A DNA stretch of 64,000 nt, taken from a virus (Duplodnaviria; Caudoviricetes). The notes beneath the pieces were generated by a model, which worked only from the letters and a program-made list of their open reading frames with translations, was not told where the DNA came from and made no database searches. The position numbers were made by a program, and so were the translations under genes. The DNA is taken from positions 1-64,000 of IMG/VR virus record IMGVR_UViG_3300021255_004321; one strand, written 5' to 3'. Of the stretch, positions 1,446 through 31,880 are shown piece after piece. The first letter of the stretch is position 1, and every line of letters begins with the position of its first letter.

Positions 1446-3656
1446 TTACTCTCCTATTCCACCTGTAAGAATATCTGACGCAATCTGTTCTTCAACTTTT
1501 CTGCGTCTTTCAGCTTCATCTTCAGATGTAAATGAATCTTTAATTTCCTGCATCTTATCGCCTACAGTTTGTTCAGAAAGACGATTGCTGTTTGCAGGTA
1601 CGCCTGTTCTCAATTCATTTAATACTTTTATAGTGTCGTTGAGAACATCGCTTTCTTGAATTTTTGGCATTACATACTTGTGAGAAACAGTTCCGCCCTC
1701 ACCGTTGTAGTTTGGAATCCAATCGTTTCCTGCCCATTCAGTAAGGTGTTGACTTTCAATAAACTTTATAAACAAACCGTCTTTTGCTTCTTTATATCTG
1801 TTTGATACTTCACGGAGTCGTTTCTGCTGCAACTCTGTCATACGAGCTTTTCTTTCACGAAGAAGCTTCTTTGCTTTTGCTGCTTCAATTTTAGCAGATT
1901 CCATAACTGTATCATCTCCGCCGCCCATATCGTCGCCGCCTGTATCATCACCGCCGAAGTCAAAGTCATCTCCGCCATCGTCTCCACCGCTGTCTTCATC
2001 ATCTCCGCCGCCTACAGGCTTTAAGAATGAAGACAAACGCATCCACTTCTGAACGTCTGTTGGGTCAAGGAATGAATACTTTGAAAGAATATCAGTAACA
2101 ACATCTTCAGGAAGAGGTTCTCCTTCTTCAAGTCCTAAAGCTGATGTAATCAATTCCATAATGGACTGAGTCATTTCAAGAGTTGCCATACGAGCTTCAC
2201 GCTTTTCCTGTCCCATCTCTTCGGCAGGGAAACGCATTGAAAGAACGAATGGAGTATTATAATCAAACTCACCTGTGATTGCAAAATGCAATCTTATAAG
2301 TTCACCAATACCATCAAGACAAGCTGATTGAATTGTATAAACGTGGCGAGCGAAAGGTTTGTACTGTTCTGTCAATGAAATACCTGAGTTACCGAAGCCA
2401 CCAAATTCTTGGTCAAGATATGCCTTAGGTACACCTGATGCACGAGCAACACGGTCTTGGTAAAGTTCAATATCCCCTACGAAGTCGATGTCACACTTTG
2501 ACTCTTTTACATCAACATCAATCAAATCCTTAGGAGCCCAGATTTTTGTATTTACAGTGTAAACTTCATTACCAGCATTTGCAGGATTTACACCGATATT
2601 ATCATATTCCTCACGAACTTCATTTACGTGTTCAAAAGCAACATCAGGACCCATACCTTCAGTTCCTTGTACACCGTAAATTGTTACTGGGAATGACATC
2701 TGTCTTGCAAGGCCTTGCAACATAATTGCAGAGAAAGCCAACTTAAATGGTGAAATACAACCTAAAAGAGGTGGACGACCATAAGGATAGAATTCAGAGT
2801 TTTCTGCGTTGTAACGGAAATGTGATACTTCCCAAGGTGGTAAAATGTTTCCATCATACAATTCATATCCCAAAAGTTTAGCATCATAAGAATCTGCAAT
2901 GTTTTCATCAAGGTCCATTGTTTTCTTATCAAGAATTATATCTATAAGTTTTTGTATTTTCTCGGCGCGGTTTTTATTTGCAGAAAGATAACCATTTTTC
3001 TGTGAAAGATATTCTGCCATTCTGATTGGGTTAAACTCAAGTCTTTCCATAACTGAGTTTACTTTGATAGGCTTAATACCTTCAATGCCATTAAGACCTA
3101 CTTTGTGAAGCCAAAATGATTCACCGTAAAGTTCAAGATCGTGGCAAACCTGCTGCAATCTTTGCTGATTGATACCCCATCTTGAAAACAATTCATAACA
3201 CTTTGAAGAGAATGCTGCGTTAGGAGAGTCAACTGTCAAGATACGGTTTTGAACATCAAGCTGTGTTGCTTCTGCAGCACAAAGTTCAACTACACGATAA
3301 CCGAAGTCATCATTGTAATAAAAGAATGACAATTCATTAAGTCTTTGTTGTCTATCCTGAATATCGTTATATGAAAGAGTTGTCTCCTGCATATAAGCAT
3401 CAAAGTATTTTTCAACATTTTCTGTAAGATGTTCTGATTTGAATACTGAACCAAGAGCAGCATTCTTGAAGCGGTATGCATCGTTGTTCAAGTCAACACG
3501 AACAAACTCCATACCATATTTTTTAACTAAAGGGTCATCGCTCTTTTCGTCTCTTTTTGCTCTAAAGCCAAATAATGATGAGAGACGTGAAACATATGAA
3601 CTTTTCAATATGCTTGATTTAGGAGCCTCTCCACTTCTATAAATATCATCTGCCAT
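1446..3656 (-). CDS. Portal protein, T4 gp20-like, with acidic linker and C-terminal extension
   Basis: LELYGESF, VSHFR...YPYGRPPL, DIELYQDRVARASGVPKAYL motifs typical of gp20-type portals; ACTAAAT motif at 3677. Confidence 0.85.
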   Translation of the reverse strand: MADDIYRSGEAPKSSILKSSYVSRLSSLFGFRAKRDEKSDDPLVKKYGMEFVRVDLNNDAYRFKNAALGSVFKSEHLTENVEKYFDAYMQETTLSYNDIQDRQQRLNELSFFYYNDDFGYRVVELCAAEATQLDVQNRILTVDSPNAAFSSKCYELFSRWGINQQRLQQVCHDLELYGESFWLHKVGLNGIEGIKPIKVNSVMERLEFNPIRMAEYLSQKNGYLSANKNRAEKIQKLIDIILDKKTMDLDENIADSYDAKLLGYELYDGNILPPWEVSHFRYNAENSEFYPYGRPPLLGCISPFKLAFSAIMLQGLARQMSFPVTIYGVQGTEGMGPDVAFEHVNEVREEYDNIGVNPANAGNEVYTVNTKIWAPKDLIDVDVKESKCDIDFVGDIELYQDRVARASGVPKAYLDQEFGGFGNSGISLTEQYKPFARHVYTIQSACLDGIGELIRLHFAITGEFDYNTPFVLSMRFPAEEMGQEKREARMATLEMTQSIMELITSALGLEEGEPLPEDVVTDILSKYSFLDPTDVQKWMRLSSFLKPVGGGDDEDSGGDDGGDDFDFGGDDTGGDDMGGGDDTVMESAKIEAAKAKKLLRERKARMTELQQKRLREVSNRYKEAKDGLFIKFIESQHLTEWAGNDWIPNYNGEGGTVSHKYVMPKIQESDVLNDTIKVLNELRTGVPANSNRLSEQTVGDKMQEIKDSFTSEDEAERRRKVEEQIASDILTGGIGE

Positions 3657-6494: not shown

Positions 6495-7246
6495 TACAAT
6501 CTTCCTACTTCAGACCCAACTGCTTTATGAGAAATCTGACAACGAATCTGAAGTTCAGCTGCCTTTGCGATAATCTCTTTTGCATTTGTCAAGTCTTCGA
6601 TAATTACCGAGATACGGTTCTTATCACATTGAGCTGTTTGTGACTCAACATAGTTCTTATAGAACTTTTCAACATCATCAGCATTTTTACAAACACACTG
6701 ACAATTTGAGAAAATGTTCTTTGACATATCAAGGAACGCAAACATATTTTTTGGAGCTTCTGTGTCGCAATCAATCAACACAACGTTGAAGTTTTCGTAA
6801 AACTGTTTGATACCTGAATAATTGATTGGCTTTCCTTTGAAAGCAAATTTTGGTGGCTGCTTACGGAATTCAACAGTCTCCTCATTCTGCAAATCGTGAG
6901 AGATATGAGAAATCATTGCAAAGAGAATCATTGACTCGTCAATACAATTTTTGTTTGCCATATCTTCGCCGATGAAGAAACCATACTTTTTTGAAAGAAG
7001 GAAGTCAACCCAATCATCTTCGAGTCCCTTTTCTTCAAGTTTCTTTTTTACATCTTCAAGAACAGCCTCACATTCTTTTGTAAGATCTTCTCTTGCAGGT
7101 TCTTTCTGTCCATCAGGAATTGTGAATTGTCTCCCATCATCAGAAAATCTGAATACAAGACCATTAAGACCCTGAACCTGTCCTTCTGGGAAGTACTCCC
7201 AATTTAAGTCGTCCAACTTAAGCATTCTGTTTCCTCCAATCGTCAA
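6494..7246 (-). CDS. Hypothetical protein (likely start at internal MLKL)
   Basis: Long ORF in operon; GGAGG precedes MLKL. Confidence 0.7.
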   Translation of the reverse strand: MTIGGNRMLKLDDLNWEYFPEGQVQGLNGLVFRFSDDGRQFTIPDGQKEPAREDLTKECEAVLEDVKKKLEEKGLEDDWVDFLLSKKYGFFIGEDMANKNCIDESMILFAMISHISHDLQNEETVEFRKQPPKFAFKGKPINYSGIKQFYENFNVVLIDCDTEAPKNMFAFLDMSKNIFSNCQCVCKNADDVEKFYKNYVESQTAQCDKNRISVIIEDLTNAKEIIAKAAELQIRCQISHKAVGSEVGRL

Positions 7247-7589
7247 TCTCTTCTTTCATACCTTCAATTGCTGCTTGATATTCCATTGAACCACGGTCTC
7301 TTAATGGGAACTTAAGTTCAAGAATGATTACATTCTTGTCGTCCTTTTTGTAAGCCAACGAAATCTGGTCAGTATCAAAGCAGCGGAATACATCGAGATT
7401 ATATCTTTCCTTACAATAAGCAGTAAGGTCCTCAAATACATTGTTCTCAATATCAATTAAATTATCGTGTTGTTTGAATAATGTGTTCTTCTTTTTCTTA
7501 TCCAAAACTTTTGATGTCACAATGAGATTTGCAAATCCTATGACAATGTTAAGAACAAGTAATACACTTATTAACATTAAAACCTCCAT
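7218..7589 (-). CDS. Hypothetical protein with N-terminal membrane anchor
   Basis: Hydrophobic N-terminus LISVLLVLNIVIGFANLIV. Confidence 0.65.
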   Translation of the reverse strand: MEVLMLISVLLVLNIVIGFANLIVTSKVLDKKKKNTLFKQHDNLIDIENNVFEDLTAYCKERYNLDVFRCFDTDQISLAYKKDDKNVIILELKFPLRDRGSMEYQAAIEGMKEEIDDWRKQNA

Positions 7590-7596
7590 TTATAAA

Positions 7597-9495
7597 TTAG
7601 ATTGTTTGGCCTTTTTGCAAGCTGAAGAGCTTTTTCCAAATACCTTCACTAATGTACTTTTGATTGAATAATGAGTTAAGAGTCTCACCTTTTGTTGCCA
7701 AGTTCAATTCCTGTAAGTTGTCGATTGAATTATCATATCTTAAAGAATATGTTCTTGTAACTTCAGTTTGTCCTGGGCGGAAGATACGGCCTCTTGACTG
7801 AGTGTACTCAACAAAGTTGTAAGTCTTTTCAACATATACTTCATATTTACATTCAACACAAGTAACTGATGTGTTCATAACTTTAATGGAAGCAATCAAA
7901 AGTTTTTGCTTAGGATCTTTTAAGAACTTCTTAACTAAAGGAATACGGTCGTCCATAGGAACATCAGCCGAAATAATACAAGGATTATATTTCTTATATC
8001 TTTCTTTCAAAGCTTCCATTGTTTCTGGGTGGAAATACCAAATGATTCCTTTTTGGTCATCAACATCAGTTCGTTCTTCAATAATTTCATCAACAATTTT
8101 AATCTTATTATAATCTTTGTTATAATCAAACTTATTGATGTCATCTTGTAAGTCTTGTGGGAAGTACTGAAACTTTTTATTATTCTTTAACGCTGTTGGG
8201 TTATCAACACAAGTTTGGAAATATTGGAATAAGTTCTTCATTCTTTCAGAGAAGCTCTGTCCACCTTCACTTGCAATGTTTGCCTGTTCAGCAGCAGTAA
8301 AGTTGCTGAAGCGTTCATATATTTTTCGATGCAATGGCGACATTTCCATAAACATCGTAGGTACTTCATAATTTAATGGCAAGTCAAGACAATCAACCAT
8401 AAGACGCTTTGCACAATAATACTTCAGCATCTTTTTATTGAACTCTTCGATTAAGTCAAGTCTCCAACCATTAGGATTGATTGCATAAGCACTGTAAGAA
8501 TTACCAATATCATTATACTTTGCACACCAAGTTTGATAGTCCATACCATCAACTAAAGCAGGGTCAAGTATCTTTGAAGGCTCATACAACTTTTCATACT
8601 TATCTGCAAGAGTTCCTGTAAACTCAAATCTCTGTTCAAAGAATGGGACAATAAAGTTCATAATCTTTGTTCGTCTTGAAGTAGGTGAACTTAAGTAATG
8701 ATTTTCATCAAGAAACAAACCACCTGGGCGGCCGTCAAGCCATTCTTTGATAGGCATTGGATTTTTAGTATAGGCTGTACTTGTAGAAGGATGCTTATTC
8801 TTTTTTGTGGCAAACTTAATATCGTAATAATAATTACTTACTGACTTCAAAGCATCATAAGAAAGGATGATAATTGTTTGAGGATATTTTTCGGTATTGA
8901 AAATATCACGGTCCTCAAACTTTACTTTTGCCATTGAAGTAATCGTAAGAATATCTTCGTCTCTCATATTCTTACCGTGTAACAATAATTCACCTTTAAC
9001 ATTACGAGTACCGATTGATGAAGAAAATATCAAACATTTATTTATGTCGCCATAATATCTTTTATGTTCGATTAAACCTGTAAGAATCCAAGATTTACCT
9101 AAACCCATTTCGTGGTGATACAAAAATCTGTTCTGGCAAAGTCCTCTTAATAAGTCTTGTATTTGATAACTTTCATAAGGATGCTTTCCTACAAGAGGCG
9201 GATAGTTCATCAATTCTTGTCGATAAGTTCGACGATATATTTTAAGTTCTTTTAAGTTTTCGTGATAAAGTTTTATCTCTTCTTCAGTAAGTAAATCAAC
9301 TTCAGGTTGCTCACCAAAGTCTACACAAGATTTATAAAAATCTTCATATCTTGTTACATTAAGAGTCCATCTTTTTAATGTGGCATTCCATCGACAACCT
9401 TCTTCTTTCAAAAAATCAACAAGGTCACGGAAATTATCGCCGCCAATCTTAATAAGAAGATTTTTATCAGATGAGTCATATTCTATAGCAACCAT
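7597..9495 (-). CDS. SNF2-family (SF2) helicase/ATPase
   Basis: HEMGLGKS (I), LDENH (II), TGT (III), QSRGRIFRPGQ (VI); start moved to MVAIEY because 9514-9538 is a terminator and a promoter motif lies at 9506. Confidence 0.9.
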   Translation of the reverse strand: MVAIEYDSSDKNLLIKIGGDNFRDLVDFLKEEGCRWNATLKRWTLNVTRYEDFYKSCVDFGEQPEVDLLTEEEIKLYHENLKELKIYRRTYRQELMNYPPLVGKHPYESYQIQDLLRGLCQNRFLYHHEMGLGKSWILTGLIEHKRYYGDINKCLIFSSSIGTRNVKGELLLHGKNMRDEDILTITSMAKVKFEDRDIFNTEKYPQTIIILSYDALKSVSNYYYDIKFATKKNKHPSTSTAYTKNPMPIKEWLDGRPGGLFLDENHYLSSPTSRRTKIMNFIVPFFEQRFEFTGTLADKYEKLYEPSKILDPALVDGMDYQTWCAKYNDIGNSYSAYAINPNGWRLDLIEEFNKKMLKYYCAKRLMVDCLDLPLNYEVPTMFMEMSPLHRKIYERFSNFTAAEQANIASEGGQSFSERMKNLFQYFQTCVDNPTALKNNKKFQYFPQDLQDDINKFDYNKDYNKIKIVDEIIEERTDVDDQKGIIWYFHPETMEALKERYKKYNPCIISADVPMDDRIPLVKKFLKDPKQKLLIASIKVMNTSVTCVECKYEVYVEKTYNFVEYTQSRGRIFRPGQTEVTRTYSLRYDNSIDNLQELNLATKGETLNSLFNQKYISEGIWKKLFSLQKGQTI

Positions 9496-9513
9496 AATAT
9501 AGAATATATTAAC

Positions 9514-9538
9514 AAAAAAGGGTACCATTACGGTACCC
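9514..9538 (-). terminator. Intrinsic terminator
   Basis: GGGTACC/GGTACCC stem plus U6. Confidence 0.7.
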
Positions 9539-9562
9539 ATATATTTTTAACTTTTTATTTTG

Positions 9563-10186
9563 TTATTCTTCGTAACCTTCTGGGATATAGCAGAACAAAT
9601 CTTCTTCATCTTCCCAAGGCTCATCGCCTGAAACTTCATCTCCATCTTCGTTATAGAAAACAGTTGCCTGAACTTTTCTTCCACCTTTAAGATTGTTAAA
9701 AGCTATTTGTGCAGTTTCTAAATCACCTTCATTGTCAAATGAATATGACTGTCCATCATCATTGTTTATTGTAATGTTATGATGGCCTGAAATATCACGG
9801 AGAATATCTTCAACTGAAATCTCAAAAAGATCTCCGCCTTCATAATCGGTTACTCTTACAACTTCGTTCATTTCACTCTCTTTCAACTTTGTTTTTTCTT
9901 TTACAGAAGTACATTCATCAAAAACACAATGCTCGCCAAGATACTGAGAAATTGCGTCATCAATAACTGCAACTGTAAGAGGACCTTCGTAATGTTTAAT
10001 TACGCTGTCTCCGCCATCTTTATAAACTTCAACTACTGGGCAATCTTTATGAATTTTTACAAGAATGCCTTCAACGCCATCAATTTCATCAAGTTCAATT
10101 ATTGAATTGTTGATACCTAAGAAACAGTAAGAAGAGCTGTCCATCATATCAGCAATTTCATCATCACTTAAACCAATTTCGTTCAT
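9563..10186 (-). CDS. Acidic hypothetical protein (putative head-internal)
   Basis: LKES/MNE sites; C-terminal module similar to 165..854. Confidence 0.7.
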   Translation of the reverse strand: MNEIGLSDDEIADMMDSSSYCFLGINNSIIELDEIDGVEGILVKIHKDCPVVEVYKDGGDSVIKHYEGPLTVAVIDDAISQYLGEHCVFDECTSVKEKTKLKESEMNEVVRVTDYEGGDLFEISVEDILRDISGHHNITINNDDGQSYSFDNEGDLETAQIAFNNLKGGRKVQATVFYNEDGDEVSGDEPWEDEEDLFCYIPEGYEE

Positions 10187-10187
10187 T

Positions 10188-10868
10188 TTACTCTCCCATT
10201 ACTTTTTCGTATTCGTCATAATCATCTGAATCCAACCAAGACTCAAATCCGTCATCAGGAGCTTTGCCGTTTTCATCTCTCTGTTCGATTTTGATAAAAG
10301 CACCGCCCATTCCGAGAGTTTGCTCAACAACTTCAAGTCCCATCCCTGGAGCTGCAGTATCAAGGAACTGCTGAAGCTTGTTTACGAAATCAATAAAGTT
10401 TATTTGTGCACTCTTGAATTTACCTTCTTTCAACAACTTTTTGCTTTCTGATATTCTTTCCATTGTTTTAAGATTTTCAAAAAGAAAGCCTTGTCCTGCA
10501 GAAAGGTCCTCAAGTCTTTTAAGTTCTGCATCATCAATGTAAACTCTGTCTTCCATTTCAGATACATCTGAAGCCATTTCAAACAAACCTTTGATAGCTT
10601 GTTTCAAATCACCGCCCATATTCATCTCGCCAATCTCATCTTCGTATTGTTGAGAAACATAAAAGCAAACTTTACCTGCTGCATCAGGATCTTCATAACC
10701 TGTAGCAGTAATACCTACATTGAAGCCCGCGCCACAATAAACAGTTATAGCAACTTCTTCGTGAACAGGGTCATCTGAAGTTTTTGCTTTTGCTCTATAT
10801 GCTGCTCTTAAAAGGTCGGCAACTTTTGCGTATGTAAGTGTTTGCTCACCTTCAGTTAATTTACTCAT
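10188..10868 (-). CDS. Acidic hypothetical protein (putative head-internal)
   Basis: MSKLTEG, ISES, LKEG sites; ACTAAAT motif at 10885. Confidence 0.7.
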   Translation of the reverse strand: MSKLTEGEQTLTYAKVADLLRAAYRAKAKTSDDPVHEEVAITVYCGAGFNVGITATGYEDPDAAGKVCFYVSQQYEDEIGEMNMGGDLKQAIKGLFEMASDVSEMEDRVYIDDAELKRLEDLSAGQGFLFENLKTMERISESKKLLKEGKFKSAQINFIDFVNKLQQFLDTAAPGMGLEVVEQTLGMGGAFIKIEQRDENGKAPDDGFESWLDSDDYDEYEKVMGE

Positions 10869-11713: not shown

Positions 11714-11752
11714 TTACAAAAATAATATAAAGAAGTATAATCAAAAGTTTAA
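11714..11752 (-). promoter_or_regulatory. Class-1 (putative early) promoter
   Basis: 39-bp conserved motif upstream of ligase fragment. Confidence 0.75.
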
Positions 11753-12222
11753 TTTTTCTTAGAATATTTTGGCTCAATATAAAAAATAGAATCTTTTACT
11801 GTTTCCATCGGGAACTCAGTAAAGATCTTGTGACGCAAACCTGTATTACCGCCCTTTACTTTGTTTCTGTTATCTTCAACTTCTTCAACTTCTTTTTTAT
11901 CAAAAAATGTTGGAAAGCGGTCAATAATGATTTCGATTGTCTTTTCATCAAGTTCAGCTTTTTCTTTGCCATCATCGCCAAAAACTGCCTTTCTTAAGTC
12001 TTCTTCTGAGTCGTGCTCCCAATCAACTCCACTATAAGGCATTGAAAGACGAACAAGCTTTAACATATTCTCAGGTGTAAATTGACTGAATGATGATGCT
12101 AATTCTTCTTCTGTTTTATTTTTCAAAGCGGCGGCTGATCTTTCAAATATCGACCGCGCGTCAAATCTCCTCAACAACTTCGTACCAATCCTTTCTTTTT
12201 GATATTTCAGCGTCTTTGTCAA
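11749..12222 (-). CDS. Hypothetical protein resembling a short segment of gp23-type major capsid protein (start uncertain)
   Basis: FTPENMLKLVRLSMP...KIFTEFPMETVKDSIFYIEPKYS; paralog of 12325..12975. Confidence 0.55.
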   Translation of the reverse strand: MTKTLKYQKERIGTKLLRRFDARSIFERSAAALKNKTEEELASSFSQFTPENMLKLVRLSMPYSGVDWEHDSEEDLRKAVFGDDGKEKAELDEKTIEIIIDRFPTFFDKKEVEEVEDNRNKVKGGNTGLRHKIFTEFPMETVKDSIFYIEPKYSKKN

Positions 12223-12325
12223 ATCCTGTCAAAGCCAACATTTGTTTATGAGCTGAGTCTTCTGTTGGCCAACTTTCATAATAAGTTCTTTCGCCTGATT
12301 TCGTTACGTGATAAATATTAAACAT
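12161..12325 (-). CDS. 54-aa hypothetical protein (not in ORF track)
   Basis: TAATG overlap with upstream stop; MFNIYHVTKSGERTYYESWPTEDSAHKQMLALTGFDKDAEISKRKDWYEVVEEI. Confidence 0.65.
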   Translation of the reverse strand: MFNIYHVTKSGERTYYESWPTEDSAHKQMLALTGFDKDAEISKRKDWYEVVEEI

Positions 12326-12975
12326 TACTTCTTACCTCTCTTCTTTGGTTTAGTGGGTTTTATATTTTGAATGTATAAATGATCTGATGGTGCAGCCATA
12401 GGTTTTTCTTTGAACAATTTACTTATTCTTTTATCAGAATCGTGGTCAGCAAGCTCCAAGTCCTGTTCATCAAAGAATGTTGGGTACCTATCCAAAATCT
12501 TTTCAATTGTTTCTTCAGTAAGCTCAGCTTTATTACCGTCTCCAAAAACAATTTCCCTTAATTCTTCATAAGTATAATTATCAAGGTTGATGTCTTTTAA
12601 TGAACCGCCTAATACTGCTGTTGGGAATATCGGCCGAACCTGAAGTTGTGATATAGGGTCAGCTAAAGTAATTGCATTCCCTTTATTGCCAATAAAGCCT
12701 GTTGTTACGACAGGAGCAAGAGTACCATACGCAATTGGAGCGTTTGGGTCGGCATTTGGGTCTTTATAAACAGCCATACTATCTTTAGGCATCCCACAAA
12801 CTTTTTCAAGTTTCCTTGTTGCTTTTACAAGTTTATCTGCTTCTTTCTTGAGCTTTTTATTTTCTTTCTCTTTTTCTTTTGTAACATTGCTGCACCAATT
12901 ATTGAACATATTCCATATTGAATGAGCTTCATCATCTTTCATCTCTAAAGAGATACTTCCTTTAGGTCCTAGCAT
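12325..12975 (-). CDS. Hypothetical protein, paralog of 11749..12222
   Basis: Shared LR..VFGD..KAEL.E.TIE.I.DR.PTFFD block. Confidence 0.7.
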   Translation of the reverse strand: MLGPKGSISLEMKDDEAHSIWNMFNNWCSNVTKEKEKENKKLKKEADKLVKATRKLEKVCGMPKDSMAVYKDPNADPNAPIAYGTLAPVVTTGFIGNKGNAITLADPISQLQVRPIFPTAVLGGSLKDINLDNYTYEELREIVFGDGNKAELTEETIEKILDRYPTFFDEQDLELADHDSDKRISKLFKEKPMAAPSDHLYIQNIKPTKPKKRGKK

Positions 12976-12989
12976 ATAATGATATTAAC

Positions 12990-13013
12990 AAAAAAGGCAG
13001 GCCGAAGCCTGCC
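12990..13013 (-). terminator. Intrinsic terminator closing flaB-flaA unit
   Basis: GGCAGGC-TTCG-GCCTGCC plus U6. Confidence 0.85.
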
Positions 13014-13036
13014 AGTAGAGTCCGAGACCCTAGATT

Positions 13037-13849
13037 TTATTTTGCATCTCCTGAAGAATCCATTTTTTCTTTTTCTCTTTCAATCAGCGCAGCCTTAAGT
13101 TTGATTGCCTCTTTTTCTCTTTCTTCAACCTTTGTCTTATCGCCTGACTTCAAATTGAAAGTTTCATCTGTTGACTTAATAATCTCAAGTTCCTGTTCAG
13201 TGTATGCAAGGTCATAAATAACCTTTACATTGCTTATGTAAACAACTGAAACATCATAGCCTGTAATAGGAATTGTTCTTATGCGAATTGCTCTAATATA
13301 AAGTTCATTTGTTGCCTTTCCGCCATAAGCTGGGTAATTCAAAACGTCTCTTTTATTAGGGTCATCAACATATTCAAGATTATCCCATTCAAGAACAACT
13401 TCTCCTATAGTCTGCAAATCACCTTTGAATTTATATTCTTTGCCTACTGGGTCATTTGGGTCAGTTGCTAAAAATATTGATACTTCATCGTTTCTGTTTA
13501 TACCATTAACTGTAATACCAAGTTTCTTTAATGTGCCAACATTTGTCAAGTAGCCAAACTCTTTATCAGCTTCAGTTATAATAGGATTGTATGGCGGCAC
13601 AATGTCATAATACACATAACGATTTTCAGGAATGTTCTGAACACAAACAGCAAGTTTGCCATCAACAATCTTAATCTGATAAGGAACTCCCTTAAGAGAT
13701 GACATTGGGCGAACTTCCCAATTTTCGTAGGAATAACCATCAACTGCGTTTTCGATAAAAGTACTTGCATTAAGGAAAGTCTTTTCCTCAGCAAATGTTG
13801 TAAAACAAATTGCGAATAGCATTGCAAATATCGCAAACAACTTCTTCAT
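13037..13849 (-). CDS. flaA: Spirochete-type flagellar filament sheath protein FlaA
   Basis: Sec signal peptide; GYLTNVGTLKKLGITVNG, LEWDNLEYVDDPNKRD...YPAY, YISNVKVIYDLA match the Treponema FlaA pattern; adjacent to flaB. Confidence 0.8.
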   Translation of the reverse strand: MKKLFAIFAMLFAICFTTFAEEKTFLNASTFIENAVDGYSYENWEVRPMSSLKGVPYQIKIVDGKLAVCVQNIPENRYVYYDIVPPYNPIITEADKEFGYLTNVGTLKKLGITVNGINRNDEVSIFLATDPNDPVGKEYKFKGDLQTIGEVVLEWDNLEYVDDPNKRDVLNYPAYGGKATNELYIRAIRIRTIPITGYDVSVVYISNVKVIYDLAYTEQELEIIKSTDETFNLKSGDKTKVEEREKEAIKLKAALIEREKEKMDSSGDAK

Positions 13850-13951
13850 TTATAATCTCCTCAAATTAAAGTATGGGGAACCGAAGTTCCCCTAGTTAAG
13901 CTCTTTTTTAAATACTAGGCAACTACCCACCCAATTGAGCCTCAGTTGCCT

Positions 13952-14809
13952 CTACTGTAAAAGCTGCAATACATTTTGTGACTGACTGTTTGCCTGTGCA
14001 AGCATTGCAGTTGAAGCCTGCTGAAGGATTGAGTTCTTTGTGAAGTCAACCATTTCTTTTGCCATATCAGCATCGCGAATAATGCTTTCTGATGAAGTCA
14101 TATTCTCTGCTGCAACATTGATACCTTTTGACGCCATCTCCATTCTGTTCTGAACAGCACCAAGGTCAGCTCTCTGTCTGTTTACATTCTTCAATGCTTC
14201 ATCGATTGTTGCAAGTGTACGGTTTGCTTCTTCAGTATCAGAAACTGATACGAGAGCGCCGTCTTCACCATCCTGTCCCTTTCCACGAAGTCCCAAAGAT
14301 TCAGCAGTTGCAGATGCAATGTTAATCTTGATGTTCTGGTCAACATTTGCGCCAACTTGGAAAGTAATTGTATTGTCGGCTTCTTTTGCGAAACGACCTG
14401 TCAACATATTGTAGCCATTGAATTGAGCAGTAGATGCGATACGGTCAACTTCAGCAACGAGCTGTGAAACTTCTACCTGAATCTGCATTCTGTCCTCATC
14501 GCTGTAAACACCGTTTGAAGCCTGAACAGCAAGTTCACGGATACGCTGCAAGATGTCAGTTGTTTCCTGCAAATAACCTTCAGTTGTCTGAATGAATGAT
14601 ATGCCGTTCTGAACATTTTTTGAAGCCTGATTGAGACCACGAATCTGACTTCTCATTTTTTCACTTACGGCAAGATTTGCGGCGTCGTCTCCGGCGCGGT
14701 TGATTTTCTGACCACTTGAAAGTTTTTCCATTGACTTCTGCAAGTCAATTGAATTCAAGTTTTCCTGACGAGCTGCAAAGATTGAGCTCATATTGTGATT
14801 TATAATCAT
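13952..14809 (-). CDS. flaB: Spirochete-type flagellin (filament core FlaB)
   Basis: [71 protein letters not shown]; 285 aa, lacks D2/D3 as in Treponema FlaB. Confidence 0.97.
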
Positions 14810-14833
14810 AGATGTTGCCCCTCCTAAGGCAAA

Positions 14834-14855
14834 AAGGTAGCATCCTTGCTACCTT
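14834..14855 (-). promoter_or_regulatory. CsrA-type binding hairpin in flaB 5' leader
   Basis: AAGGTAGCA-AGGA-TGCTACCTT, perfect 9-bp stem with AGGA loop; second AGGAG in the SD. Confidence 0.75.
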
Positions 14856-14859
14856 ATTA

Positions 14860-14888
14860 TTATCGACATTTTATATAAAAATATTAAC
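14860..14888 (-). promoter_or_regulatory. sigma28-like promoter (TTAA-N16-GTCGATAA) overlapping a class-2 TGTTAATAT motif
   Basis: 1 mismatch to GCCGATAA; positioned just 5' of the hairpin. Confidence 0.6.
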
Positions 14889-14889
14889 A

Positions 14890-15525: not shown

Positions 15526-15948
15526 CTACAGTATAGCGTTAAGCCAATAAGGCAAAGTTATATTCCATTTTAATTTTAAAATCAATGTTACAATATGAAG
15601 CAAGAAAAAGCCGCCAAGTATTGCAACTGCAATCAAAAGCCACTTAATAAGCAACTTATTTTTTGTTGTCAACTTAATAATTTCAGTTGTCTTTTTAGAG
15701 TCTTCTTCAATAGCATCAGTCCATTTATTTGTTATATCGTCGACTTTAACACGAAGTTCATCAATTGTAACATCTTTGCTGCTGTTTGTTGCACGAAGTT
15801 CTTCAATATAAATTTGCTGTTCTTTGTAGTTGTCTCTTAACTCCTGAACGATTACAGCAGTTGAGCGAGGTGCTTCAGGTGTCTGAGCAAACACAGGTGC
15901 TGTACCTAAACTAAAAAGAATTGCAAGTATCAAAAACAATTTTCTCAT
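15526..15948 (-). CDS. Envelope protein: signal peptide, coiled coil, C-terminal TM (spanin candidate)
   Basis: VFA|Q cleavage site, heptad region, WLLIAVAILGGFFLLHIV. Confidence 0.6.
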   Translation of the reverse strand: MRKLFLILAILFSLGTAPVFAQTPEAPRSTAVIVQELRDNYKEQQIYIEELRATNSSKDVTIDELRVKVDDITNKWTDAIEEDSKKTTEIIKLTTKNKLLIKWLLIAVAILGGFFLLHIVTLILKLKWNITLPYWLNAIL

Positions 15949-16319
15949 TATTCACCTTCCTCTTTATAAAGACCTTGCTTTTTCAATAAATCAATAACAT
16001 CTTCGAGCTTAACATAATCTTCTGTTGCAGCAATCGCATCTTTTTTACCTGCATCGTAACCTTCATTAAATGCTTGCTGTTTTTCGTATGCAATTGATTT
16101 CTCAAGTTCATCAAGTAAGTCAAATCCATAAGTTGTAGCACTATCAAGTTTCTCAAGGATTTCTACTTCTCTTACATTATCTTTTTTAAGCGAGTTAAGT
16201 TGTTCCAAAGTAACTGCTGTTTGAACTTTACCGTCTACCAAAGCGTTGTCAGCAACTTTATTTGAAACACATCCTAAAAATAAAAAACAACTTAATAACA
16301 GTACTGCAAATTTTTTCAT
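15948..16319 (-). CDS. Lipoprotein (o-spanin candidate)
   Basis: MKK, hydrophobic core, lipobox FLGC. Confidence 0.65.
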   Translation of the reverse strand: MKKFAVLLLSCFLFLGCVSNKVADNALVDGKVQTAVTLEQLNSLKKDNVREVEILEKLDSATTYGFDLLDELEKSIAYEKQQAFNEGYDAGKKDAIAATEDYVKLEDVIDLLKKQGLYKEEGE

Positions 16320-31793: not shown

Positions 31794-31880
31794 TTTTCCT
31801 CCATAAATATAAAGGCCATATCAAAAGTTGATTGCTCTATTTATAGAGGACACCTTGTAATAAAAATATATTAACAGTTA

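Follow-up and report, generated by a model that had tools for sequence, protein, structure and literature searches.

Flagellin genes carried by phages have been described in temperate Enterobacter prophages (fliCP-tldR and FRphi), where the phage flagellin replaces that of the host (PMC10705468, PMC13418256). According to these papers, the phage flagellin becomes part of the host flagellum and alters how it behaves, the variation of the phage isoform is located in the exposed D2-D3 domains, and RNA-guided TldR represses the host fliC gene; the flagella are external, so immunity and flagellotropic phages matter. In this study, a related locus was analyzed in a stretch of 64,000 nucleotides (nt; hereafter the window), which is the first 64 kb of the 91,822-bp viral record IMGVR_UViG_3300021255_004321 of IMG/VR. 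The minus strand carries flaB (13952..14809), which encodes a spirochete-type core flagellin of 285 amino acids (aa), and downstream of it a gene for a 270-aa compact homolog of the spirochete sheath protein FlaA with an N-terminal signal peptide (flaA-like, 13037..13849). We hold with high confidence that both are functional filament proteins encoded by a phage, and most likely both are exported and built into the endoflagella of the host.

The locus resembles the Enterobacter system in two ways: a flagellin isoform with conserved assembly domains is phage-borne in both, and the promoter logic of the flagellin gene, which is of the host sigma28 type in Enterobacter, looks similar here at the level of motifs. 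The differences are more numerous. The Enterobacter phages are described as temperate, whereas neither Phage_integrase nor Resolvase had a match in any of the four phage records searched, which include the complete 300,878-bp genome of a relative; this fits a virulent phage. A TnpB/TldR-like gene is absent from the window's record, and the Cas12f1-like TNB domain was found neither in this record nor in the complete relative. Spirochete FlaB lacks D2 and D3, the filament is periplasmic rather than external, and a sheath gene is carried, whereas none is involved in Enterobacter. Incorporation of the phage isoform into the flagellum, reported for Enterobacter, is something we infer here. With the filament enclosed in the periplasm, receptor masking is unlikely, as the original prediction made from the DNA sequence had argued.

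Cyanophage psbA, a phage copy of a host protein in high demand, offers another parallel. In both cases a conserved copy of an abundant part of a host machine is kept under purifying selection, presumably for upkeep during infection; the machine here serves motility and not metabolism, two interacting parts are carried, and the phage copies differ systematically from those of bacteria. A literature search, with supplementary gene tables outside its reach, found neither flagellin nor FlaA described for huge phages, jumbo phages or phages of spirochetes. The jumbo-phage papers looked through for these terms contained no mention of flagellin, Treponema or spirochaetes, and flagella appeared in one review only, as a phage receptor and in its reference list. 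The suggestion of an undescribed system needs to be narrowed: a phage flagellin swap is already published for Enterobacter prophages, but a lytic huge phage with core plus sheath is unreported in the literature found.

The flagellin consists of D0 and D1 only and, as predicted, is a full-length protein of the Treponema type. Both Pfam domains, Flagellin_N (residues 3-139, 2.6e-42) and Flagellin_C (residues 200-284, 2.2e-26), score far above cut-off, and the protein aligns end to end with solved flagellins of Treponema denticola (residues 1-285 with 9pil_Fd of 285 aa, E 7.7e-111; residues 1-284 with 9pim_CJ of 286 aa, E 2.8e-105). NCBIfam named neither FlaB nor the FlaA-like protein above cut-off. 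The T. denticola filament has a core of FlaB1, FlaB2 and FlaB3 and a sheath of FlaA (PDB 9pil, 9pim, 9pin), and the phage FlaB shares the length and domain plan of its flagellins; contact and glycosylation residues were taken from these 2026 structures, as given in PMC13439194. When 20 rows of the phage clade were compared with 142 bacterial rows, Q88, R91, E92, D106, S115, S126, T137, D157, R222 and E224 were found in 19-20 of the 20 phage rows. The longitudinal contacts Q88, R91, E92, D106 and E225 of FlaB1 and its lateral contact R223 are kept in the phage clade, as are the glycosylated S115, S126 and T137, which are predicted glycosylation sites of the phage protein. D157, which corresponds to the FlaA contact D162 of FlaB1, is also kept.

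The phage FlaB departs from bacterial flagellins at a few defined positions. Six of the seven mapped inter-subunit contacts of FlaB1 are kept in 19-20 of the 20 phage rows (N277 of FlaB1 could not be mapped with confidence); the exception is the R244 position, a lateral contact, where 124 of 142 bacterial rows have R but 16 of 20 phage rows have I or V. The glycosylated T171/T167 position, T in 139 of 142 bacterial rows, is S, A or T in 13, 5 and 2 of the phage rows, respectively, and the residue after it is M in all 142 bacterial rows and A in 18 of the 20 phage rows. Two more changes, L16E and Q238T, are diagnostic of the phage clade. The 4-residue insert of FlaB1 that carries S152 is missing from the phage protein, as it is from FlaB3.

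The second gene encodes a FlaA homolog by several lines of evidence. The protein matches Pfam FlaA (PF04620) at 3.4e-10 and 40.4 bits (cut-off 25), over residues 98-215 only, and a profile of its family matches the solved FlaA of T. denticola at 7.2e-38. An AlphaFold2 model (pLDDT 83.6, pTM 0.81) gave as its top three Foldseek matches the FlaA1 sheath chains of 9cyn (E 4e-9 to 1e-8, TM 0.46-0.60), with carbohydrate-binding modules ranked below them; the minor sheath protein of 9pin is far from it (E 0.4). Signal peptide, jelly-roll body and C-terminal helices are common to T. denticola FlaA and the phage protein. The intact signal peptide noted in the original prediction is borne out by eye: the N-terminus reads MKK, a hydrophobic run and FA|EE, and lines up with the leader of T. 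denticola FlaA. Of 17 family members, 16 have a Sec-type signal peptide of this form, and T. denticola FlaA shares both the peptide and the A|EE junction. The residues R239, D271, K280 and E328 of T. denticola FlaA are retained, and D293 is replaced by E; the stretch with S86, R104 and K109 gave no confident alignment.

The phage protein is compact, with 270 aa against 349 in T. denticola FlaA, and about 50-80 residues of the N-terminal part are missing. Its matches to FlaAs of Treponemataceae are limited to the C-terminal two thirds, in the range of about 30% identity for the longer representatives: a match was found in 190 of 201 Treponemataceae genomes, whose FlaAs of 340-410 aa cover profile positions 95-269 only. 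Outside this family, Spirochaetota FlaAs of 305-320 aa match positions 1-268 (best E 1.4e-47), which indicates that the phage protein is a shortened full-length FlaA and no chimera; a foreign N-terminus on a compact FlaA was considered and rejected on this ground. No FlaA of about 270 aa was seen among the matches listed from the 201 Treponemataceae or from 401 Spirochaetota genomes. A search of 1.8 billion representatives with the family gave 67 matches, about 17 of which are of about 270 aa and aligned over their whole length at 24-63% identity. A complex prediction of phage FlaB with residues 20-270 of the FlaA-like protein scored 0.00, which counts neither way.

Phylogenetic analysis placed both proteins in clades of their own. 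Of 80 loci retained from species-representative bacterial genomes, those of uncultured gut or rumen Treponema (74% identity) and T. bryantii (72-73%) encode the cellular FlaBs most similar to the phage protein; the lone 92% match among species-representative genomes was a 306-kb phage contig binned into a Firmicute genome. The predicted contrast of a conserved FlaB (72-74% to Treponema FlaB) with a diverged FlaA (about 30%, in the C-terminal two thirds only) is thus confirmed, and near-100% identity to a host locus was not seen, the cellular FlaBs found reaching at most 74% at the protein level. IQ-TREE, applied to 78 rows, united all 16 FlaBs of the phage type, five of them with verified phage context, in one clade (SH-aLRT 98, stem 0.16), and a FastTree tree of 168 rows gave a phage clade of 26 rows with support 99. 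The clade lies outside both cellular groups, the Treponema tandem pair and the solitary paralog; its attachment point has a support of only 82 in the 78-row tree, and the trees were quick searches without bootstraps. In a 49-row FlaA tree, 18 of 19 compact FlaA-like proteins formed one clade (98) apart from all cellular FlaAs, with long branches of 0.3-1.8 between lineages. Between phage lineages UvsX is 37-40% identical and FlaB 77-78%.

A scan of viral records with the FlaB alignment found 18 viral loci. In a 96-row tree, the FlaB of a 259-kb contig joined the clade of the window, four loci formed a second viral clade (96), and the FlaB of a 329-kb contig stood alone on a long branch; two members of the second clade lie on contigs of 386 kb and 240 kb, and on each of these contigs flaB is followed, 2-3 kb downstream, by a FlaA-like gene. 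These 240-, 329- and 386-kb contigs, all outside the window's clade, are among the loci L137-L151. The second clade and the lone 329-kb FlaB suggest that flagellin entered huge phages more than once, as it seems from the tree. Six of the 18 loci, from four lineages, have a FlaA-like gene no more than 10 kb from flaB, at a spacing of 100 nt to 3 kb. Genomic context was verified for the window and for L002-L007, L009, L091, L112/L139, L146 and L147. The best metagenome matches to the phage FlaB, at least 120 protein clusters (90% identity), are 75-100% identical to it, and many lie on contigs of 290-460 kb. Among 50,697 GenBank phage records there were 12 weak flagellin matches, all below 60% identity and mostly in short records, and no FlaA. 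The stretch is present, at least in part, in public runs of 12 studies, which are labelled as sheep, bovine or unspecified gut metagenomes.

The carrier is a huge phage, of about 300 kb, with a probably virulent lifestyle. The record's estimated completeness of 31% implies a full genome of about this size, and a more distant relative (L091), complete at 300,878 bp with direct terminal repeats, has both flagellar genes. Five of 20 larger window proteins tested had any PHROG match, and those found include a helicase, a DNA polymerase, a UvsX-like recombinase and RIIA; in the rest of the record, three of 10 proteins tested matched (an exonuclease, a clamp loader and a head maturation protease). 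The helicase, DNA polymerase, UvsX, RIIA, clamp loader and head maturation protease agree with the predicted setting of the pair among phage genes. The genes that adjoin the pair had no family match, and an Atlas search with a 216-aa neighbor protein gave no usable match. The pair sits in the same gene order in three further contigs of IMG/VR, of 53-189 kb, and in L009 (JAZNWZ010000130.1), a contig of 306,108 bp and of the same phage type. L009 is binned into Candidatus Fimenecus, a Firmicute metagenome genome, which is likely an error and could mislead host assignment.

These data bear on the explanation that the pair is an artefact or a passenger, that is, an assembly chimera, a recent host fragment without a role, or part of a bacterial plasmid. 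The window's record is a linear fragment, and 15 of the 20 larger window proteins lack a PHROG match, both of which would fit. The junctions of the pair, however, recur in four other assemblies, which also answers the concern about a chimeric join; a relative whose genome is complete, with direct terminal repeats, has both genes; none of the cellular FlaBs found exceeds 74% identity to the phage FlaB; each protein belongs to a clade specific to phages; selection on both genes is purifying; and the record carries a head maturation protease, RIIA and UvsX. This explanation is largely refuted, and we regard its remaining probability as close to negligible. The flaB and flaA-like genes are long-resident phage genes, neither a chimera nor a fresh capture from a host.

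Selection on the two genes is evident from pairwise comparisons. The dN/dS between phage FlaBs is 0.11-0.19, against 0.09-0.13 for bacterial pairs. Compared with L002, a close relative, the FlaA-like protein is 100% identical, all 23 nucleotide differences being synonymous, and the comparison with L009 gave an omega of 0.10. In several lineages of huge phages that diverged deeply, the two genes are intact, conserved and maintained by purifying selection. The changes at the lateral contact and at the glycosylated position, together with a minimal and fast-evolving sheath protein, suggest a remodelling of the filament rather than its mere supply.

The same changes could be read as sabotage, in which poison or capping subunits alter supercoiling, detach the sheath or stall the flagella, so that the cell stops swimming or changes shape; the phage could gain, for example, from an infected cell that stays in a host-rich spot or from easier lysis. 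I or V at the R244 lateral-contact position in 16 of 20 phage rows, the altered T171 position and the M after it, the loss of several FlaA-FlaA lattice residues and the fast evolution of the FlaA-like protein (branches 0.3-1.8) would all suit a poison. Most assembly residues are kept, however, and dN/dS is low, so a working subunit fits equally well; two genes are carried where one poison would be enough; and the Enterobacter phage flagellin improved motility, according to PMC13418256. We consider sabotage rather unlikely.

The transcription signals of the locus were examined by motif enrichment, hairpin and terminator scans and folding. The flaB leader (14810..14889, minus strand), whose function is inferred, contains a copy of the motif GTTAATAT (14888-14881), which occurs 17 times in the window against 2.8 copies expected from shuffles (for example, at 14881-14888, 12982-12989 and 31868-31875). 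The genes immediately preceded by a copy include flaB, the gene that follows flaA-like, and uvsX, and the motif is probably a phage promoter element. Further into the leader lies a sigma28-like -10 box, GTCGATAA (14867-14860), in the arrangement TTAA-N16-GTCGATAA; the 300-kb relative has TAAA-N16-GCCGATAA. The box resembles PflaB2 of T. denticola, the sigma28 promoter of flaB2, with -35 TTAA and -10 CCGATAA (PMC9481697). The predicted promoter region of the pair's own is thus upheld at the level of motifs. After flaA-like there is an intrinsic terminator (12990..13013, minus strand), GGCAGGC-UUCG-GCCUGCC followed by T6, with a 7-bp stem, a UUCG loop and the T6 run at 13013-12996. Six C(UUCG)G hairpins occur in the window against 0.3 in shuffles, three of them with T-rich tails, in keeping with the statement that the terminator is like others in this genome. 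Between the two genes stands another hairpin (13875..13892, minus strand), GGGGAAC-UUCG-GUUCCCC, with a stem of 7, no T-run and the tail ATACTTTAA; it may attenuate or stabilise the transcript, and read-through to flaA-like is possible.

Motif sharing is relevant to the idea that the two proteins serve the virion or another non-flagellar purpose, as particle fibres or decoration, or in adsorption or exclusion. Fibre proteins without an explanation are frequent in huge phages; carbohydrate-binding jelly rolls and tailspike modules, with weaker scores, are also similar in fold to the FlaA-like protein; and PHROG 16088 comprises flagellin-like proteins of phage catalogues with no known function. 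The GTTAATAT motif of flaB, however, is common to uvsX and other non-structural genes, the Sec signal peptide sends the FlaA-like protein out of the cytoplasm, where virions assemble, and FlaB keeps host-type glycosylation and FlaA-contact residues. A use of this kind is very improbable.

The flaB leader also bears on regulation. A 9-bp hairpin with AGGA in its loop (14855-14834) is followed by a second small hairpin that holds the AGGAGG Shine-Dalgarno sequence (14825-14820); the leader folds into these two small hairpins, with AGGA and GGAG in the loops, at a minimum free energy of -19.5 kcal/mol (z -2.78). Comparable GGA-loop hairpins followed by a CCAAGGAGG ribosome site precede flaB in several Treponema genomes, with different stem sequences. 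Read against the CsrA site consensus, the leader looks CsrA-regulated, as a matter of pattern, since it presents GGA twice, first in the loop of a hairpin and then at the Shine-Dalgarno sequence. The layout is that of the FliW-CsrA switch of Bacillus subtilis, Borrelia and Campylobacter (cited in PMC9481697). The present case differs in that the phage has no CsrA or FliW of its own and in that close relatives dispense with the leader; CsrA, FliW and FliS each had no match in the four phage records, the complete 300,878-bp relative included.

These features raise the possibility of a regulatory hijack, in which cytoplasmic phage FlaB would bind host FliW and free CsrA, or the leader RNA would soak up CsrA, so that host translation is rewired. 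The fliW-csrA genes are present in Treponema, and CsrA sites are reported close to the flaB ribosome sites of T. denticola (PMC9481697), the phage leader has its two GGA-loop hairpins, and the C-terminal segment of FlaB is as conserved as its bacterial counterparts; host proteins would serve, since no CsrA, FliW or FliS was found in the four phage records. On the other hand, a CsrA-repressible leader would limit the phage's own FlaB once CsrA is freed, and the leader is severed from flaB in L002 and L009. FliW binding would need none of the polymerisation contacts, the three glycosylation Ser/Thr residues or the sheath-contact Asp, all of which are kept, and four lineages or more also have the sheath protein with its Sec signal. 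We judge a hijack of this kind unlikely.

Filament assembly is favored over a purely cytoplasmic role by the retained assembly, glycosylation and sheath-contact residues, by a secreted sheath partner that travels with flaB, by a leader that resembles the host's own, and by a promoter motif common to non-structural genes; the evidence, read from the genes, leans to assembly over titration of FliW. Under this reading, flaB would be transcribed early or in mid infection from the phage promoter motif, and a host-like sigma28 promoter might also be active in some lineages. The leader, with its host-type GGA hairpins, would couple translation to the CsrA/FliW flagellin checkpoint of the host. FlaB would leave the cytoplasm through the host flagellar type III export gate and the FlaA-like protein through Sec, and both would join the growing endoflagella, so that the filament is either sustained after host gene expression drops or changed. 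That the two proteins are built into host flagella and there change or sustain motility is a proposition to which we give an even chance.

Expression data are compatible with this scheme to a limited degree. An RNA library made from what is probably the source sample contains contigs that differ at 0-2 positions from flaB, flaA-like and neighboring genes and cover them in part, at a depth of 2-6; gaps in the cover of flaA-like and its neighbors carry no meaning. An RNA library of another study yielded a contig of 606 nt, 92% identical and at depth 19.6, that runs from flaB across the phage-specific spacer to the start of flaA-like. We take these contigs as a weak hint of transcription, though DNA carry-over may account for them.

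Several points weigh against this account as a whole. The source-sample RNA contigs are shallow and may reflect DNA carry-over, and the tall RNA peaks over flaB are conserved stretches also covered by host transcripts. The host, putatively an animal-gut Treponema, is assigned by similarity alone. Established flagella are stable, so "maintenance" within one infection cycle answers no obvious need. Only four of the eight alignable contact residues of T. denticola FlaA are kept in the phage protein, D220, R292, R306 and K317 having been lost (the alignment of the helical part is of low confidence). The linkage of the two genes is not constant across relatives. The predicted two-gene unit holds in the window, with promoter motif and terminator, but not in the complete 300,878-bp relative, where FlaB is encoded at about 100.5 kb and a 277-aa FlaA-like protein at 48.1-48.9 kb, 52 kb apart; in one 70%-complete relative no FlaA-like gene was found. 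L002 and L009 have an additional gene between the leader and flaB, which indicates that a CsrA-type leader is not essential. With these points included, the whole account, of a huge and probably virulent Treponema phage with long-resident filament genes and the mechanism outlined above, appears to us slightly more probable than improbable.

The insertion may have left its mark on flaB. In L002 it is a 286-aa open reading frame (7119-7979), and in L009 it lies at the matching place, between 5153 and 6076. The L002 product had no Pfam match; with an HNH-like motif and repeated GKHWFNNG motifs, it looks by eye like an HNH homing endonuclease. Beside the insert, nucleotide identity to the window is 65-67% over roughly the first 250 nt of flaB, against 92-100% over the rest of the pair. 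This mosaic looks like gene conversion linked to a homing endonuclease inside the flagellin gene.

If the pair acts on the flagellum, its purpose would differ from that in Enterobacter. The enterobacterial phage flagellin is explained by the exposed surface of the filament, through immunity and phage receptors, and a periplasmic filament in apparently lytic phages removes this explanation; motility or cell mechanics is thus the likely target. We tentatively suggest, as a possibility that we ourselves hold doubtful, that huge lytic Treponema phages steer host locomotion with a matched core-and-sheath pair placed in growing endoflagella. A filament segment with altered lateral packing and glycosylation would change the wave of the cell body and the swimming of the cell to the benefit of the phage, and the sheath protein would evolve fast in step with hosts or rival phages. 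If true, this would be viral control of host motility through the building blocks of the motor itself. The sheath protein is the first found in a virus for spirochetes, within the reach of the searches made, and the genes are widespread, with at least 120 protein clusters (90% identity), 12 gut-metagenome studies and at least two viral FlaB clades. The natural variants at the R244 position and the T171-M172 pair, and the minimal FlaA, may serve as probes of how core-sheath coupling sets flagellar curvature, a question opened by the 2026 filament structures (PMC13439194). The flagellar genes also offer a marker of the host for many huge phages of the gut that have not been cultured.

A TnpB gene lies close to flaB in one relative. 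In L007, a 219-kb relative, positions 9160-10524, 300 nt downstream of flaB, encode a 454-aa TnpB with IS605 OrfB domains. Its D/E/D motifs, seen by eye, presumably form the RuvC active-site triad and would fit an active nuclease. Two relatives' records, L007 included, hold three copies each of TnpB-like genes, as multi-copy insertion elements do. A role of the L007 protein as a TldR-like regulator was considered and rejected, as it has full IS605 OrfB domains and is one of three copies in the record. No match of guide length to host flaB loci was found; a spacer upstream of the gene gave a single 15-mer match, with no extension, in the AVSEKM-coding part of Treponema flaB; by a rough estimate about 0.5 such matches are expected, and we take this one as chance.

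The surroundings of the pair hold further genes of note. Just upstream, on the minus strand, two small proteins are encoded at 15526-15948 and 15948-16319, one with a signal peptide and a C-terminal membrane helix and the other with a lipoprotein-like LGC motif; they are conserved in L002 (81% and 92%) and, with the FlaA-like protein, may form a cluster of envelope-directed proteins. Downstream of flaA-like, the minus-strand genes at 12325-12975 and 11749-12222 have a C-terminal segment in common (31-41% identity, with tblastn cross-hits). They also have, by eye, a "...PTFF-D/E..." motif, which recurs downstream of the FlaA-like gene in the 259-kb contig (L112:8893-10212); no family, Atlas or PHROG match was found. 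In the complete 300,878-bp relative, the FlaA-like gene is flanked by genes for a DNA/RNA non-specific endonuclease with a signal peptide (Pfam 2.4e-33) and a microbial-type PARG (3.7e-35), at L091:814-1488 and 2385-3221.

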